DNA of 64,000 nt from positions 11,079 to 75,078 of the forward strand of contig URXV01000003.1 in assembly GCA_900551865.1 (NCBI GenBank), in the 5' to 3' direction. Origin of the DNA: an uncultured Rickettsiales bacterium. GTDB taxonomy: Bacteria; Pseudomonadota; Alphaproteobacteria; RF32; CAG-239. The notes beneath the pieces are model-generated. The model worked only from the letters and a program-made list of their open reading frames with translations, was not told where the DNA came from and made no database searches. Made by a program: the position numbers and the translations under genes. Below are positions 24,492 to 49,464 of this stretch, one piece after another (position 1 is the first letter of the stretch; every line of letters starts with the position of its first letter).

Positions 24492-24648
24492 CATGTGCGA
24501 AAACGGCAATCCCGCCGTTTTTATAATTCACACGCAGGAATGGCGTCGGTCTGCCCGGATGGAAAGGACAGGCTTCACGCTCCGGTGCTTAAAGCGATTT
24601 AAGCCGAAATCCTGCGGAGGTTTAACCGGAAAATAAGGAAAAATAAAA

Positions 24649-27709: not shown

Positions 27710-28420
27710 TTAAGCCGTCATAAGCAGAGTTCTGACAAATTCCGGCAGCGTTTCTTCCGCTTTGCCTAAAACCAGACGGTCAAAACAAACGCTGTTTGTC
27801 GGTGGTTCCAAATTAAAAGCAAGTGTTTTGGCGCCGTTTTTCCAAGCTTCCCAGGCAAAACGGGAAGCGGGAGGAATTTCTCCTGACGTTCCGACTGCAA
27901 CGAATAGGTCGGCGCAGCGCAGCAGTTCTTTCGCAACAGAAGTGAACATTATTTCTTCGCCGAAGAAGACAATGTCCGGCCGCAGCGATTTCTCGGCGCG
28001 GCAAAAAGGGCAGGGCGTTTCAGCCGTTATATCGTCCCATGTTTCCCAGGCATTATGGCAATGAGAGCATCGGATTTTGTTAATTTGCCCGTGAATGTGA
28101 TACACGTTTTCGCTGCCCGCCTTTTCATGCAGGGTATCCATGTTTTGCGTCAGGATATATACTTCTCCTGAATAGCCCTGTTGTAGCCAGCTGATTGCCA
28201 AATGGGCGGCATTGGGCTTTGCTTCGGCCATTTCTTGCCTTAAACCGTTATAAAAGTCAAGCACGTCACTGCGCCGTAGCGAAAGGGCTTCCGCCGTTGC
28301 CACCTCTTCGGGATTGCGGTTGTTCCACAAACCGTTTTTTCCGCGGAAGAGCGATAGCCCGGATTCGGCGGAAATGCCGGCACCGGTCAGAAATACAATT
28401 TTACGGTATTGGAATTGCAT
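27710..28420 (-). CDS. cobB: NAD-dependent protein deacylase, Sir2 family (short CobB-type)
   Basis: GAGISAESGL, TQNMDTLH and HG motifs with a CxxC...CxxC zinc ribbon. Confidence 0.85.
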   Translation of the reverse strand: MQFQYRKIVFLTGAGISAESGLSLFRGKNGLWNNRNPEEVATAEALSLRRSDVLDFYNGLRQEMAEAKPNAAHLAISWLQQGYSGEVYILTQNMDTLHEKAGSENVYHIHGQINKIRCSHCHNAWETWDDITAETPCPFCRAEKSLRPDIVFFGEEIMFTSVAKELLRCADLFVAVGTSGEIPPASRFAWEAWKNGAKTLAFNLEPPTNSVCFDRLVLGKAEETLPEFVRTLLMTA

Positions 28421-28430
28421 AAATTTGGGC

Positions 28431-28492
28431 TTTTTTTAACGAGGTTGGCTCCTTTTAGCCCATTCCTTCGTGAAACAGCCGTTTGCCGTTTC
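28431..28492 (-). promoter_or_regulatory. Conserved two-hairpin leader element, copy B
   Basis: The reverse complement aligns with 39726-39792, with 14/14 and 16/16 identical blocks. It ends 10 nt before the cobB ATG. Confidence 0.45.
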
Positions 28493-28545
28493 AAAATAAT
28501 AAAACATATATTTATCAGAATAAGCGTATAATACGTTTTTTATAC

Positions 28546-28603
28546 CGTTTGTCAACAAAATATCCAAATCAGATGCCGGTGGCGAAACAGATGTTGACAA
28601 ACG
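28546..28603. promoter_or_regulatory. Divergent promoter pair embedded in a perfect 12-bp inverted repeat
   Basis: CGTTTGTCAACA and TGTTGACAAACG each contain TTGACA. The plus strand reads TTGACA-N17-TACAGT and the minus strand reads TTGACA-N16-TATTAT. Confidence 0.45.
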
Positions 28604-30216: not shown

Positions 30217-31110
30217 ATGAAAAAGCGCCTGATAGCAATCGTCTTTGTTCTGATTGCCGCGTTCGGCGTGTTATGTTACGGCAGCAGATACCGCCGGCAG
30301 AAAACGCCGGCGGTATCTGTGGTTATGCTTACCTATCAGCGGGCAGAAATGCTGCCGCAGGCGATAGAGAGCATTTTGTCACAGACTTTTTCTGATTTTG
30401 AATTTATCATCATAAACGACGGTTCATCGGACAACACCGACGAAGTTGTCGCCCGCTGTGATGACCCTCGTGTTCGCTATTATCGCAATGACCGTAACCG
30501 GGGAATTGCTTTTTCCCGCAACCGTGCCGCAGCGTTGGCACGCGGAAAATATGTTATGATAATGGACGACGATGACAAAAGCCTGCCGACCCGGATGGGT
30601 GCGCAGGTGTCGTTTCTGGAAAGCCACCCGGAAATAGCAGCTGTTGCCGGGCAGATAAAAGGGCTGCCGCGCATTCCGCAAAATCATGACGAAATCGCCG
30701 CCGGGCTGATACAGTATAACAATTTCGGCAATGCCAACGTGATGTACCGCCGCGATTTTGCCGCAAAACATAATATCCGTTATGACGAGGGGCTGAAAGC
30801 GTCCGAAGACTGGGACTTCTGGTTGCAGATTCTGTTTGCGGGCGGGAAACTGGCGGCGTTGCCCGAGGACGTATTGGAAAGGAACGGCGCCAGCACAAAA
30901 TATTACGGCATCAGTTACGAGGAAGCCAATGCTGCCGTCCGCAAAAAAATTGGCAAAGCCTTTCTGCCGGAAAAACCGGATGCGTTTTATGCCGCCGACA
31001 GTTGCGGTAAATTAAAACTCATCTCTGAAAAGAATATCTTTTCCCCGGTTTTTACGCAAAAGCTTTTTGATATCAACTGTCCTGCCGCGGCGTCTCCAGC
31101 AGTTCGCTGA
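30217..31110 (+). CDS. Glycosyltransferase family 2
   Basis: VSVVMLTYQR...IIINDGSSDNT...MDDDD motifs. An N-terminal TM segment is present. Confidence 0.85.
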   Translation: MKKRLIAIVFVLIAAFGVLCYGSRYRRQKTPAVSVVMLTYQRAEMLPQAIESILSQTFSDFEFIIINDGSSDNTDEVVARCDDPRVRYYRNDRNRGIAFSRNRAAALARGKYVMIMDDDDKSLPTRMGAQVSFLESHPEIAAVAGQIKGLPRIPQNHDEIAAGLIQYNNFGNANVMYRRDFAAKHNIRYDEGLKASEDWDFWLQILFAGGKLAALPEDVLERNGASTKYYGISYEEANAAVRKKIGKAFLPEKPDAFYAADSCGKLKLISEKNIFSPVFTQKLFDINCPAAASPAVR

Positions 31111-31795
31111 CAAATTGCGGCAGCGTATCGCCGGCCTTGCCCATAATATGCCTGTCAAAATAGAAGTTGTTTGACGTCGGCTCAAGATTAAATTCAAGTG
31201 TATCAGCCCCATAATACTTGGCTGTCTGCACAAATCCGGCTGCCGGATAAACCACTCCGGACGTTCCCACGGATACGAACAGGTCCGATGTGCTTAAAAG
31301 CCTTTCCACCTTATCCATATACAAGAGATTTTCGCCGAAGAAAACGATATTGGGCTTCATCATTCCCATAATATGGCAGTTTTCGCAAACCGTTTCCGAG
31401 GTAACGTCGCCCCAGGTTTCCAGAACGTGCCCGCAGTTCATGCAGACAGCCTGGTTTATTTGCCCGTGGATATGGATGACGTTTTTGCTTTTGGCTTTTT
31501 CATGTAAGATGTCGATGTTTTGCGTTATGATATGAATTTCGCCCGGATACTCCTGCTGCAACCGTGTAATTGCCAGATGTCCGGCGTTGGGCTTCGCGTT
31601 CCACAGTTCAGGTTTCATGTTGTTATAAAAATCGTGGACGTAATCTTGGTTGCGATAATATGCTTCAATTGTTGCCACATCTTCAACACGGTGGTTGTTC
31701 CACAGCCCGTTTTCGCTTCTGAACGTGGCGAGGCCGGATTCGGCGGAAATTCCCGCCCCGGTTAAAAACGTGATTTTTTTATACGTTTTGCGCAT
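31073..31795 (-). CDS. cobB: NAD-dependent protein deacylase, Sir2 family (second paralog)
   Basis: GAGISAESGL, TQNIDILH, HG and CxxC...CxxC motifs. The 3' end overlaps the convergent GT2 gene by 38 bp. Confidence 0.85.
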   Translation of the reverse strand: MRKTYKKITFLTGAGISAESGLATFRSENGLWNNHRVEDVATIEAYYRNQDYVHDFYNNMKPELWNAKPNAGHLAITRLQQEYPGEIHIITQNIDILHEKAKSKNVIHIHGQINQAVCMNCGHVLETWGDVTSETVCENCHIMGMMKPNIVFFGENLLYMDKVERLLSTSDLFVSVGTSGVVYPAAGFVQTAKYYGADTLEFNLEPTSNNFYFDRHIMGKAGDTLPQFVSELLETPRQDS

Positions 31796-39445: not shown

Positions 39446-39725
39446 TTTGTAGGAATCTGATGTTGCAGCCGAAAAGACAGTCCTGACAGCAGAGAAAAAA
39501 GATACCATTTTTTTCAACGTTTTTCAAGTAAAATCTTTTATTTGTAATCAATATGTTAGGTATATGAACTTTTGGTTGTAAAAATGGTACAATTAAAATC
39601 TACAATGTAAGTATATGTGTATTATTAAAAAGGTTTTCATGGTTTTGATTTGGGGTTAGTTCTTCGGTCAGGGTTGTGCGGATTTTTTTAGTATGTATAT
39701 ACGATAAAATAAAATTTATTAACCC

Positions 39726-39792
39726 GAAACAACAGTCCCTGCGGCGTTGTTTCACGAAGGATTAGGGACAGGCCCGAACCTCGTTAAAAAAA
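39726..39792 (+). promoter_or_regulatory. Conserved two-hairpin leader element, copy A
   Basis: GAAACAAC/GTTGTTTC hairpin, then CGA(A)GG...CCTCG hairpin, then A7. It ends 9 nt before the ATG at 39802. Confidence 0.45.
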
Positions 39793-39801
39793 TCAAAAAT
39801 T

Positions 39802-40464
39802 ATGAAGATGTTATTATTAGCAATGGAGACAGGCAAAATCAGTGAAAATGATACAGTATCTTTAATCCAGACCGGACTTGAATGTAATGTACTTACGACT
39901 GACGAGTTTGTAACAAGCATGTTTGGAACGTGTGAAACAGAAGAGGAACAGTATGGGGATACCATTTTTGATACGGAGTGGGTAACCATACTTCGTCAGG
40001 GGGCTTTTCTGAAGTTTTCCGCTTCATCTCAGCTAAAGCTTTTATCATTGTTTGATCGAAGAAATTTGATTACATGTATTAGCCGCAGCTTTGACGATAT
40101 AGGAATAGCTTGTTTATCAAAAGAAGATGTCAGCTATCTGAAAGGCCTTGCCACACACTGTTTATTGGATATACTAACGATAGACTTAGTGAACGCCAAT
40201 CTGAGTAAGTTCCAAGCGTTCTCTTCCGATGACAAATTGTGTTTTATCCCTAACAAGATAAAGTGCGAAGAGACATTCAGACAAGAGTTGGATTATAAGC
40301 GAATGCTAAGTTACGGCCTATTACCGGAATTTTGCTATGATGTTACGTCTTACGGAATTCCGCTGGAATGTGCCGTGTGGTGTGAGCGATATATTCTGGA
40401 ACATGGCTTCACTGGTTGTATTAAACAGAGTCTATTAAACTGTATCAGAGAATACACCGTCTAG
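39802..40464 (+). CDS. Hypothetical Cys-rich cytoplasmic protein in an AT-rich patch
   Basis: ORF of 220 aa with about 11 Cys and no signal peptide. I recognise no family. Confidence 0.45.
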   Translation: MKMLLLAMETGKISENDTVSLIQTGLECNVLTTDEFVTSMFGTCETEEEQYGDTIFDTEWVTILRQGAFLKFSASSQLKLLSLFDRRNLITCISRSFDDIGIACLSKEDVSYLKGLATHCLLDILTIDLVNANLSKFQAFSSDDKLCFIPNKIKCEETFRQELDYKRMLSYGLLPEFCYDVTSYGIPLECAVWCERYILEHGFTGCIKQSLLNCIREYTV

Positions 40465-42346: not shown

Positions 42347-42387
42347 CCATCTAGGTTTTGATAACAAAATAACACTCCACGGAGTGC

Positions 42388-42428
42388 CGTCAGTCAGCGA
42401 GGGTTCGCACACTGGCGCAATTTTTTTT
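42388..42428 (+). terminator. Terminator/attenuator-like hairpin plus T8 inside the ffh leader
   Basis: CGTCAGT..GCGA-GGGT-TCGC..ACTGGCG, then CAA and T8. It ends 35 nt before the ffh ATG. Confidence 0.5.
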
Positions 42429-47531: not shown

Positions 47532-48357
47532 GATTACTTTTCCTAACTTTTGTTTTTATGCAAAAATCTGCCAGATAATATTTGGTTACACCGTTAACAC
47601 GTACCACTTTACATAGGCCGTAACCCCATTTTATTTTCAGTTTATTGTGTTCTGCAAGCTCCGCCGCAAAAAATCCCTGCCATTTTTTGCGGTAGTGCGG
47701 GCGGATATTCGTAATCAGCTGCGAAGCCGAAAGTGAATTAATAATATAATCGGCAAGCGCCAGTTGGTATTTTTTACCGGCAAAGTGCTGCGTATCTCTG
47801 TATTTGAATTTTTTTTGTACAACATGAGAATACAGGTCTATCGTTTGGAAAGCAAGAGTTTCACTTACCTGTGTTTGGATTTTATTACGTGAACATATTT
47901 CTCTGTTTACATCGTCGTCAAATTTTTTTAAGTTATTGGCTCGGACATTCGGAGCTGTCGTCAGTATGACGATGTTTGGAGTATGGGAATACAGATAACC
48001 GAGAAATTTTTGATATGCCCGTTCATATTGCTCCGCATCTTCAGCATTATCTGCTGTGTGCAAATACATACCATGCTTTCCTCCGATATTGACAAGTATA
48101 AGAGAATAGCTGTACTCCTTATTTTTGAAAAACATATCGCAGACATCATAAAGTAAGTGGTCTTCAATAGAAGCCGACGAACCGACAAAATCAACAGCAT
48201 ATTTGGGAAGAAGTTTTCCTAAACTGCTTCGGAATTCGCGGGAAACGCTGTCGCCGACTAAAAGAATACGCGGGCAGCCAAAATTTTTGGCATTATCAAT
48301 CCACGTATTGCTCCATTCAACATTTTCCCGGTCTTTTTCTTTATTAAAGCCAGTCAT
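47524..48357 (-). CDS. SGNH/GDSL-like hydrolase or O-acyl esterase
   Basis: LLVGDSVS (block I), NIGGKHG (block III-like) and RDTQHF (DxxH) motifs. Its ATG forms an ATGA overlap with the upstream stop. Confidence 0.55.
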   Translation of the reverse strand: MTGFNKEKDRENVEWSNTWIDNAKNFGCPRILLVGDSVSREFRSSLGKLLPKYAVDFVGSSASIEDHLLYDVCDMFFKNKEYSYSLILVNIGGKHGMYLHTADNAEDAEQYERAYQKFLGYLYSHTPNIVILTTAPNVRANNLKKFDDDVNREICSRNKIQTQVSETLAFQTIDLYSHVVQKKFKYRDTQHFAGKKYQLALADYIINSLSASQLITNIRPHYRKKWQGFFAAELAEHNKLKIKWGYGLCKVVRVNGVTKYYLADFCIKTKVRKSNHG

Positions 48358-49280
48358 AACTTTATCCAATCTTCAGGGACAATATCACCGGAATATTCGG
48401 CGGCGTCCGGTTTGAACCATTGCTTAGGCGCCACGACAATCTTGTCCGGATTTGTATTCAGCCAGGCGCCCCACCACGAAAATGTGCTGTTGGCGATAAT
48501 ATTATGGCGGCAGTTCCGCATCAGTTCCAAGTCAAAATAGCCGTGTTTTTCATCATTAATTTCAACGATAGTCTGCGGATAGGCCGTTTGTATATTTGCT
48601 CGAACCCAGTCTGTATCGCTGGAAAAAATAAAGAAATGCGGTTTATCAACGCGTTTTCCGATATAATCCATCGCATTCAGAAAATAATCCTTGTCCAAAT
48701 AAGTAAAAGGGCTGCGCGGATTAAGATAGTCGCCGCGGCGGATATGAACGGCAACGGCATTGGCTGCCCGGATTTTGGCAAGCATATCAAGATTCGCTGC
48801 ATCAAGAGTTTTTGTCAGCGTAAAATCATGCAGCAGCCTTTCTCGCAGCGGTTTGAAATATTTTTCGGTCTGGAAAACTCCGTCATAATAAACGTCGCCT
48901 TCTTTGCTTAGGAGTTCCGGTTCGTAACGGTTAATCTGTTTTTCGCAAACGCGGTTGGTTTTCAGGTAAATAAATTTTCCCAGATTAAATTTTTTACGGA
49001 TAGAACGGGGAAGAATGTTTTTAAATCTGATTTCGTTTTTACATCTTTTTATTTGTTCATCTGAGGCAAAATCTCCGCTGATGCTATACAATCCCAAATC
49101 AAAACTGCGGTAATGGTTGGTCAAAAAGCCGGTATTATCCCACAAAACATTGCCGGCAGCCAGTCCGAAGGCATATTGAAACATCTGATTGCCGAGCCCT
49201 CCGCCCAACCTGACGATACGCAGCGGTTTATTCGGGGAAACCTGGGCGGAATATTTGCTTTCTTGATGTGAAACAGCCAT
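48354..49280 (-). CDS. Alpha-1,2-fucosyltransferase (glycosyltransferase family 11)
   Basis: GGLGNQMFQYAF, HIRRGDY and STFSWWGAWL motifs. AGGAG lies 5 nt upstream of the ATG at 49280. Confidence 0.85.
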   Translation of the reverse strand: MAVSHQESKYSAQVSPNKPLRIVRLGGGLGNQMFQYAFGLAAGNVLWDNTGFLTNHYRSFDLGLYSISGDFASDEQIKRCKNEIRFKNILPRSIRKKFNLGKFIYLKTNRVCEKQINRYEPELLSKEGDVYYDGVFQTEKYFKPLRERLLHDFTLTKTLDAANLDMLAKIRAANAVAVHIRRGDYLNPRSPFTYLDKDYFLNAMDYIGKRVDKPHFFIFSSDTDWVRANIQTAYPQTIVEINDEKHGYFDLELMRNCRHNIIANSTFSWWGAWLNTNPDKIVVAPKQWFKPDAAEYSGDIVPEDWIKL

Positions 49281-49324: not shown

Positions 49325-49464
49325 AAACCAACCTTTTAAATATATACTTGAGTAGACATCCAATAGCAAGAATAAGTTATCCTAATCCATTATAATTAAA
49401 TAATTAATTGAAAAGACGAAAATCTTGTTGTGAATAAAAAACTGCTTATTTAAAAGGTTGGTTT
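49325..49464. repeat. Perfect 18-bp inverted repeat flanking a 104-bp AT-rich segment
   Basis: AAACCAACCTTTTAAATA at 49325-49342 is the exact reverse complement of 49447-49464. Confidence 0.9.

Follow-up and report, generated by a model that had tools for sequence, protein, structure and literature searches.

The 64-kb stretch of DNA analyzed here (the window), part of the human-gut metagenome contig URXV01000003.1 from an uncultured Rickettsiales bacterium, contains two copies of a two-hairpin element, each located immediately upstream of a protein-coding gene. Copy A occupies positions 39726-39792 on the plus strand (67 nucleotides (nt), GAAACAACAGUCCCUGCGGCGUUGUUUCACGAAGGAUUAGGGACAGGCCCGAACCUCGUUAAAAAAA) and is followed by UCAAAAAUU and the AUG at 39802, which starts an open reading frame (ORF) for a 220-amino-acid (aa), cysteine-rich orphan protein (39802..40464, +). 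Copy B occupies positions 28492-28431 on the minus strand (62 nt, GAAACGGCAAACGGCUGUUUCACGAAGGAAUGGGCUAAAAGGAGCCAACCUCGUUAAAAAAA) and is followed by GCCCAAAUUU and the AUG at 28420 of a gene for a 236-aa SIR2-family deacylase, or sirtuin (27710..28420, -; Pfam SIR2, E = 3.1e-41). Both copies were recovered as drawn in the initial annotation, which had been made from the letters of the window alone. The exact blocks TGTTTCACGAAGGA and AACCTCGTTAAAAAAA are present in both, the loop lengths differ between the copies by +7 and -2, and the element ends 9 nt (copy A) or 10 nt (copy B) before the ATG. The gapped pattern TTTCACGAAGGA-N(8-38)-AACCTCGTTAAA was found twice in the window and in 0 of 100 dinucleotide-preserving shuffles. 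No credible third copy was detected in the 64-kb window when either block was loosened to 3 or fewer mismatches, and the covariance model and nhmmer profiles likewise matched only copies A and B. A supposed third copy at 48960-49105, suggested by inverted-repeat matches to pieces of the leader, was rejected; it lies inside the coding region of a GT11 glycosyltransferase and was matched by neither nhmmer nor the covariance model.

Scans and homology look-ups yielded 24 distinct copies of the element from roughly 6-8 gut alphaproteobacterial species represented by metagenome-assembled genomes (MAGs); individual loci are denoted by L numbers where needed. An exact-pattern scan of the GTDB species genomes returned eight loci, seven of which came from MAGs bearing the title 'uncultured Alphaproteobacteria bacterium' or 'Acetobacter sp. 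46_36'; the remaining one (Draconibacterium) was discarded as a chance match with neither hairpin 1 (H1) nor an AUG. A metagenome scan, with the four positions in each arm of the outer stem of hairpin 2 (P2) left as N, returned 98 stretches, 70 of them scoring 83-96 bits with the covariance model and the remainder representing noise. Eleven copies, mostly of one repeated locus, were reached via protein homology and not through a DNA pattern (L113-L120, L121, L122). All of these retain CACGAAGGA...CGAACCUCGUUAAAAAAA, and L122 is the most diverged copy. Every one of the 24 distinct copies is sense-oriented to an ORF, with AACCUCGUUAAAAAAA (the A-run) followed by 9-11 nt and then the AUG. The initial annotation had proposed a search for further copies and for covariation in relatives, and both were found. 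All copies recovered come from a few uncultured gut Alphaproteobacteria, and a search of the literature on the host clade found nothing relevant.

The element had been described as preceding two unrelated genes. The two downstream products are as stated, namely the 220-aa orphan and the SIR2 protein, but this scope was too narrow, as in several related species the element precedes a set of genes for mostly small, multi-pass membrane proteins. Most downstream ORFs encode 77-137 aa, are very hydrophobic, appear multi-pass by eye, and belong to several unrelated families; no Pfam assignment was obtained for the small membrane proteins. The other downstream products are the SIR2 deacylase and cysteine-rich proteins of 220-277 aa. 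Two complete promoter-leader-small ORF units occur in tandem, 627 bp apart, at L013:2884-3727, where they precede unrelated membrane proteins of 112 aa and 137 aa, and two units per contig are also present in L038, L070, and L094. In addition, a weak covariance-model match (15.6 bits, GC content 0.27) at L009:4534-4607 (-), which shares the strand of the L009-type element and lies approximately 275 nt upstream of it, recurs at the same position in L098, L100, L108, and L111, and is probably an AT-rich artefact.

RNAfold returned the same two hairpins as the initial annotation in both copies, with folding z-scores of -2.2 for the 67 nt of copy A and -4.1 for the 62 nt of copy B. In copy A, H1 (39726..39753, +) is formed by GAAACAAC/GUUGUUUC with an inner GUC/GGC, and P2 (39754..39784, +) comprises the outer stem ACGA(A)GG/CCUCGU, an internal loop AUUA/GAA, an inner stem GGG/CCC, and an apical loop ACAGG. 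H1 of copy B (28472..28492, -) is formed by GAAACGGC/GCUGUUUC with one G-U pair and a loop AAACG, and its P2 (28439..28471, -) has the outer stem of copy A and an inner stem GGCU/AGCC. Covariation, assessed on a model-guided alignment of the 24 distinct copies, supported the earlier proposal that pairing is kept through compensatory changes in H1 and the inner part of P2. Changes on both sides were found in 5/8 pairs of H1 (e.g. the base pair G-C to A-U in L038 and pair 5 C-G to U-A in L122). Standard pairs accounted for 97.9% of cells over the whole modelled structure and 97.4% in H1, pairing dropped to 30-47% when partners were slid by 1-3 columns, and 0/500 shuffles equalled the observed pairing or covariation in any measure. 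Furthermore, H1 contains 27 G-U cells, which would be A-C on the opposite strand; the structure can therefore be assigned to the sense RNA rather than to DNA or an antisense transcript. The third pair of the P2 inner stem is G-C, C-G, U-A, or U-G depending on the copy, and the stem is GAG/CUC in L122, which weakly suggests covariation in this stem as well. H1 is probably a structural or stabilising hairpin. A kissing interaction between the H1 loop (GUCCCU) and P2 (AGGGAC) was considered and rejected; it is perfect in copy A and lost in L007, L009, and L013. Overall, an RNA-level structured element in the 5' leader is supported.

No variation occurs in the outer stem of P2 (ACGA-GG/CCUCGU), its internal loop AUUA/GAA, the lone A separating the hairpins, or the UUAAAAAAA tail, apart from one C-A mismatch in L028. 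Since invariance is also seen in the copies reached by homology and at the positions that the metagenome scan left as N, that of the outer stem is real, yet it provides no covariation evidence for this stem. The pairing of an SD-like GAAGGA with an anti-SD-like ACCUCG (SD, Shine-Dalgarno), to which the initial annotation had drawn attention, therefore shows no covariation and is a prediction from energy. GAAGGA itself is unlikely to be a functional SD, given its distance of approximately 43 nt to the AUG and its pairing in all of the predicted folds.

The absence of an SD at both element start sites, also claimed initially, held up. The initiation region of copy A (39785..39804, +) is A-rich, with no SD (UAAAAAAAUCAAAAAUU followed by the AUG), is at a fixed spacing from the element, and is predicted to be single-stranded; that of copy B (28418..28438, -) consists of the A-run, the linker given above, and the AUG, also with no SD. 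Predicted SD/anti-SD energies, which assume a generic 16S 3' end (there is no rRNA in the window), were -4 kcal/mol or lower in 23/37 of the window ORFs starting with ATG or GTG. Values for the orphan gene and the sirtuin gene were +1.2 kcal/mol (rank 34 of 37) and -0.3 kcal/mol (rank 31 of 37), respectively. The host otherwise uses SD sites, and the genes behind the element have none. A second SIR2-family gene at 31073-31795 (-), 3 kb from the element-controlled sirtuin, is preceded by a normal SD (UUAAGGAAAAAA-AUG) and lacks the element.

Alignment of the 260 nt upstream of each copy revealed that the 67-nt unit of the initial annotation, although correctly placed, is not self-contained in most copies and constitutes the 3' half of a leader of approximately 200 nt. 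The 5' half, here termed region I, is a conserved stretch of approximately 125 nt between the promoter and H1. In copy A it is represented by a block of approximately 115 nt at 39608-39722 (+) that includes an ATG..TATTATT box, GGTTTTCA, a GAGG/GGGG motif, and a T-run. An extended -10 promoter, TGnTAyAAT, is conserved across copies, often with TTGCCA at -35. From the alignment of copies, the predicted extended -10 of copy A is TGGTACAAT at 39585..39593 (+), with a transcription start site near 39600. A consensus promoter scan called the promoter of the L014 homologue (TTGCCA-17-TACAAT with TG) and did not call that of copy A in the window, the -35 of which is weak. Copy B is preceded by a predicted sigma-70 promoter at 28528..28555 (-; TTGACA-16-TATTAT, 11/12 matches), with a start site near 28521, approximately 29 nt upstream of H1. 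These predicted promoter positions place the element inside the transcript. Copy B retains only a remnant of region I, and L010 has a shortened region I. No intrinsic terminator was predicted inside the leaders, including at the U-run of region I.

Region I forms a hairpin of its own, predicted in copy A at 39610..39703 (+) and closed by a helix, P0, between a 5' box (AGUAUAUGUGUAUUAUUAAAAA, 39610-39631) and a 3' box (AUUUUUUUAGUAUGUAUAUACG, 39682-39703). The MAFFT register is offset between subfamilies in region I, and per-sequence duplex tests were used here instead of RNAalifold. Pairing of the 5' box AUGUCnUAUUAU with the 3' box AUAAU..GnCAU is present in 13/13 long leaders (z-scores of -1.4 to -6.9), with the compensatory changes UCA/UGA, UCG/CGG, and UCU/AGA. 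This helix explains both the conserved 'ATG' of the 5' box and the synonymous-looking variation after it.

The middle of region I also pairs with sequence downstream. Complementarity extends between GGUUUUCA(C/U) and AUGAAAAC, between a U-rich run and the A-rich linker, between (U/C)G(A/G)GGUU and AACCUCG and, in several subfamilies, between UUCUUCG and CGAAGGA. In copy A, this anti-initiation segment (39632..39666, +; GGUUUUCAUGGUUUUGAUUU + GGGGUU + AGUUCUUCG) is complementary to AUGAA, AAAUCAAAA, AACCUC, and CGAAGGAUU. The predicted duplex energy was -22.1 kcal/mol versus -10.9 +/- 2.7 for shuffles, 0/200 of which reached it, and in its minimum free energy (MFE) fold the full leader has region I paired with the initiation region. 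Without region I, the copy A initiation region had a mean pairing probability of 0.15, compared with 0.68 when region I was included. Across the family, the duplex was better than composition-matched shuffles in 12/12 leaders tested (z-scores of -1.5 to -6.4), in most copies by 6-15 kcal/mol, and it covered AACCUCG through the AUG in 11/13 leaders; as exceptions, the first AA is unpaired in L008 and L009, and the duplex of L011 ends before the AUG. When the two folds were enforced on full leaders, the closed fold was more stable than the open fold in 10/13 and equal to the unconstrained MFE in 8, with open-minus-closed energies ranging from -5.6 to +9.1 kcal/mol.

Support for this duplex was also obtained from the few linker letters other than A (UC, C, G, or GC, depending on the copy), which were paired in 12/13 cognate combinations of region I and initiation region versus 52/130 (40%) non-cognate combinations. 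Whole-duplex energies were little apart (-18.2 kcal/mol for cognate versus -16.1 kcal/mol for non-cognate combinations) because all initiation regions are alike, and the linker-letter test alone is discriminating. In L028, a G-to-A change in CCUCA converts the long-range U-G into U-A and breaks the P2 pair. Copy B has an alternative fold of its own, in which UGGGCU (the P2 inner 5' arm) pairs with AGCCCA of the linker and GGAA pairs with UUCC past the AUG, thereby enclosing the AUG. Its predicted energy is -25.3 kcal/mol, compared with -23.0 kcal/mol when P2 is enforced.

On balance, the element is somewhat likely to be the core of a modular, bistable 5'-leader RNA governing the initiation of translation without an SD. 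In the proposed open state, P2 would lock the anti-SD-like AACCUCG against CGAAGG, leaving the A-rich stretch and the AUG single-stranded and translatable. In the closed state, on a transcript starting approximately 125 nt further upstream, region I would pair with CGAAGGA, AACCUCG, the linker, and the start together with the first codons; this long-range helix would dissolve the outer stem of P2 and bury the initiation region. The two helices would be mutually exclusive because they use the same nucleotides. In copy B, upstream of the sirtuin and without region I, a local alternative would be provided by the P2 inner 5' arm pairing with the linker beside the AUG. We infer that the folds interconvert in the cell and that the two-hairpin fold is the active one. 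Candidate triggers would be a protein or ligand recognising the invariant P2, the loss of region I through 5' processing, or folding during transcription. The invariance of CGAAGG and CCUCG may be due to the need of each to pair with two partners, without any bound factor, and a bound protein or ligand would be an equally good reason for the invariance of P2.

Several points weigh against a bistable leader. The outer stem of P2 is without variation and hence without covariation support, and its invariance could reflect a bound factor instead of a switch. RNAalifold gave no consensus fold for region I, and P0 might form together with the long-range helix, in a pseudoknot, instead of alternating with it. 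The open fold is predicted to be the more stable in 3/13 leaders, and all energies are nearest-neighbour predictions on AU-rich sequence. Furthermore, both large scans demanded parts of the conserved blocks, so that conservation of GTTTC, AGGA, AACC, and the A-run is partly built in, while the NNNN positions and the homology-derived copies are unaffected; the copies are also phylogenetically close, and their counts do not represent independent events.

The bistable leader could be further refined by assigning a sensor to it, a reading regarded as possible but tentative. Here, H1, P2, and the A-tail would bind a ligand or protein, stabilise P2, and open the start region, such that the element would serve as the sensor in a riboswitch of a new class or as a docking site for an RNA-binding regulator, flipping a bistable leader of approximately 200 nt. 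Consistent with such an aptamer, neither species nor paralogues differ in the P2 outer stem, the AUUA/GAA loop, the H1-P2 junction, or the A-tail, whereas the stem and loop of H1 drift, although this invariance is also explicable by the two partners that each arm has to match. A 3' arm with an alternative pairing partner follows the classic logic of an expression platform. The AGG/GGA motifs (GAAGGA, UAGG, ACAGG) resemble protein-binding repeats, but the loop GGA does not keep its A, which speaks against CsrA, and the distribution is very narrow. No metabolite is suggested by the gene set, a mixture of small membrane proteins, orphans, and a sirtuin, and no ligand or protein can be named. Were this reading true, the element would allow a regulon comprising a sirtuin and strain-variable small membrane proteins to be translated without an SD in uncultured gut Alphaproteobacteria.

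A leader that does not switch is less probable still. Under this explanation the element would be a constitutive translation and stability module, with H1 protecting the 5' end and P2 with the A tract serving as an S1-dependent, SD-independent landing pad. The SD-less, A-rich starts in an otherwise SD-using organism fit such a module, as does the occurrence of the element without a long region I in copy B and L010. Hairpins followed by a single-stranded A/U tract reportedly resemble the initiation region of E. coli rpsA. The upstream complementary segment, the copy-specific match of the linker letters, and the alternative pairing of copy B would nevertheless all be left unexplained.

It is improbable that the leader belongs to a system resembling type I toxins, in which an inert primary transcript would be governed by processing upstream of H1 or by an antisense RNA, with small, hydrophobic, and possibly toxic proteins as products. 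In tisB, zorO, dinQ, and aapA1, the 5' end sequesters the initiation region, and the predicted sequestration of the start region by the 5' part of the leader matches that logic. Most products are indeed small, very hydrophobic, strain-variable, and paralogous, and some units adjoin tRNA genes. Against this, a length of 77-137 aa exceeds that of typical toxins, and the same module precedes a sirtuin and soluble-looking proteins of 220-277 aa. No conserved antisense promoter or small RNA (sRNA) was found in the leaders; promoter-like sites on the opposite strand were not position-conserved (L013 versus L014), and opposite-strand matches were scattered between copies.

Attenuation by a leader peptide is of similarly low probability. 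The AUG of the 5' box would start an upstream ORF (uORF) of 13-38 codons crossing the anti-initiation segment. This AUG is conserved, its A-rich, SD-less context is like that of the main start, and the frame is open in every long leader. However, the frame is not conserved (it is shifted in the L009 type relative to L007 and L052), and the stops vary. Moreover, the third base of 'codon 2' covaries with the 3' box in the P0 changes listed above, showing selection at the level of RNA and not of a peptide.

A DNA-level element, whether an operator, an unusual promoter, or a mobile repeat of the repetitive extragenic palindrome (REP) or miniature inverted-repeat transposable element (MITE) type, is highly improbable: although the element occurs repeatedly, has inverted repeats within it and promoters close by, and at one locus is near an inversion breakpoint, 24/24 distinct copies point in the sense direction and keep a fixed distance to the AUG, loop lengths vary, H1 pairing is kept through many G-U pairs that would be A-C mismatches on the other strand and break duplex symmetry, similarity ends at the borders of the element or leader, and no terminal inverted repeats or target duplications are present. 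An extracytoplasmic function (ECF)/EcfG-type promoter (GAAAC...CGTT) was also rejected, as judged by eye, the spacings of 14, 17, 28, and 30 nt differing between copies.

The orphan behind copy A has no Pfam match, only 4 relatives among 1.8 billion representatives, and an AlphaFold model with a predicted local distance difference test score of 38, unusable for function. It is hypervariable: the 220-aa protein shares 30% identity overall with its 251-aa allele in L121 (3001-3756), with the first ~28 residues and the C-terminus conserved, while identity at the same locus is 94% for the leader and 97-98% for the flanking genes. An apparent hypervariability of the 105-aa proteins was dismissed, since the 56-61% identity was to a paralogue and the loci themselves are 95-99% identical.

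Compared with two other contigs of the same species (L121:1-3086 and L028; flanks 97-99% identical), the window contains an inversion of approximately 9.9 kb with ends near 39504 and 49452. The first breakpoint lies just upstream of the leader promoter and the second approximately 165 nt from tRNA-Pro(CGG), within AAACCAACC|TTTTAAATA; in L121 and L028 the leader unit is located directly downstream of the tRNA. Perfect 18-nt inverted repeats at 49325-49342 and 49447-49464 surround 104 bp in an inverton-like arrangement, immediately upstream of a GT11 fucosyltransferase-like gene (48354-49280, -). No flipping of the 104-bp segment was detected, the orientation being the same in ten other contigs.

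A bistable leader of the kind proposed would define a post-transcriptional regulon in human-gut Alphaproteobacteria that have no cultured members and almost no functional annotation. It would place one control module in common before unrelated-looking genes, namely those for small membrane proteins, a sirtuin, and a hypervariable orphan, and would provide a natural example of efficient-looking SD-less initiation in an SD-using organism. If a ligand or protein sensor is involved, a new class of regulatory RNA would be added. The covariance model can also be used to annotate leaders and to correct start-codon calls of small ORFs in related MAGs.

The element was compared with known RNA families. 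The initial annotation had not recognised a known riboswitch or leader family, and cmscan against Rfam 15 (4227 models) agreed, with no family at the element. At gathering thresholds, a cmscan of the whole window returned only two tRNAs, an rpsB leader, and an ffh leader. The rpsB leader (24529-24644, +; 45.4 bits) is upstream of the gene for S2, and the ffh leader (42374-42425, +; 39.7 bits) is upstream of the gene for Ffh. At E <= 10, the 300 nt around each copy gave only noise of 8-16 bits, and nothing was found at the element in eight related loci. A match to the Bacteroidetes FopS sRNA (RF04319, which requires at least 56 bits) at 39630-39693 (+), with 14.4 bits and E = 8.6, was judged to be chance because it is absent in 8 homologous loci with the same upstream block.

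Guanidine-II (mini-ykkC) riboswitches also consist of two tandem hairpins just upstream of genes for multi-pass membrane proteins of approximately 105 aa. Their defining ACGR tetraloops are absent here, where H1 loops are 5-13 nt long (e.g. AGUCCCUGCGGC, AAACG), the P2 loop is (N)ACAGG or AAAGG, and ACGA occurs only between the hairpins; in addition, there is no Rfam match and no downstream Pfam match to SMR (Multi_Drug_Res). The ROSE and fourU thermometers are likewise hairpins in the 5' untranslated regions of alphaproteobacterial genes and control translation. They hold the SD or AUG in the last local hairpin, whereas here the AUG is 17-18 nt 3' of the base of P2, there is no SD, and the genes are not heat-shock genes. 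Leaders regulated by CsrA/Rsm carry two or more A(N)GGA motifs, of which at least one is in a hairpin loop and one overlaps the SD or start; here, GAAGGA is invariant but located in a stem, the loop ACAGG is followed by A, G, or C, and no GGA is near the AUG. The E. coli rpsA leader, autoregulated by S1, shares an SD-less start and hairpins with GGA/AGG followed by A/U-rich single strands. It has three hairpins versus two here, differs in gene set, taxon, and sequence, and its S1 autoregulation is not applicable, the loop GGA also not being conserved here.

The leaders of type I toxins (tisB, zorO, dinQ, aapA1, hok) resemble the element in the pairing of their 5' part with the initiation or standby region, in their mostly small, hydrophobic products, and in their paralogous loci. 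Sequestration by the 5' end is predicted here as well and is backed by the covariation of the linker letters. Unlike the toxin ORFs of less than approximately 60 aa, the ORFs behind the element encode 77-137 aa or, in the larger cases, 220, 236 (the sirtuin), and 277 aa; no antitoxin RNA was found among the promoter-like sites predicted on the opposite strand, and there is no sequence similarity. Translational riboswitches and other bistable leaders, such as the add adenine and thiM thiamine pyrophosphate riboswitches, resemble the element in that a strand of the conserved domain is shared with the helix that buries the start and the two folds are nearly equal in energy. Such a shared strand is predicted here, with AACCUCG pairing either with CGAAGG or with (U/C)G(A/G)GGUU. 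In contrast to riboswitch platforms, the sequestering strand is located approximately 100 nt upstream of the conserved domain and not downstream of it, and there is no SD to sequester. The element thus departs from the defining features of each specific family compared, and is classed here as a new RNA family within a familiar general kind of regulator.

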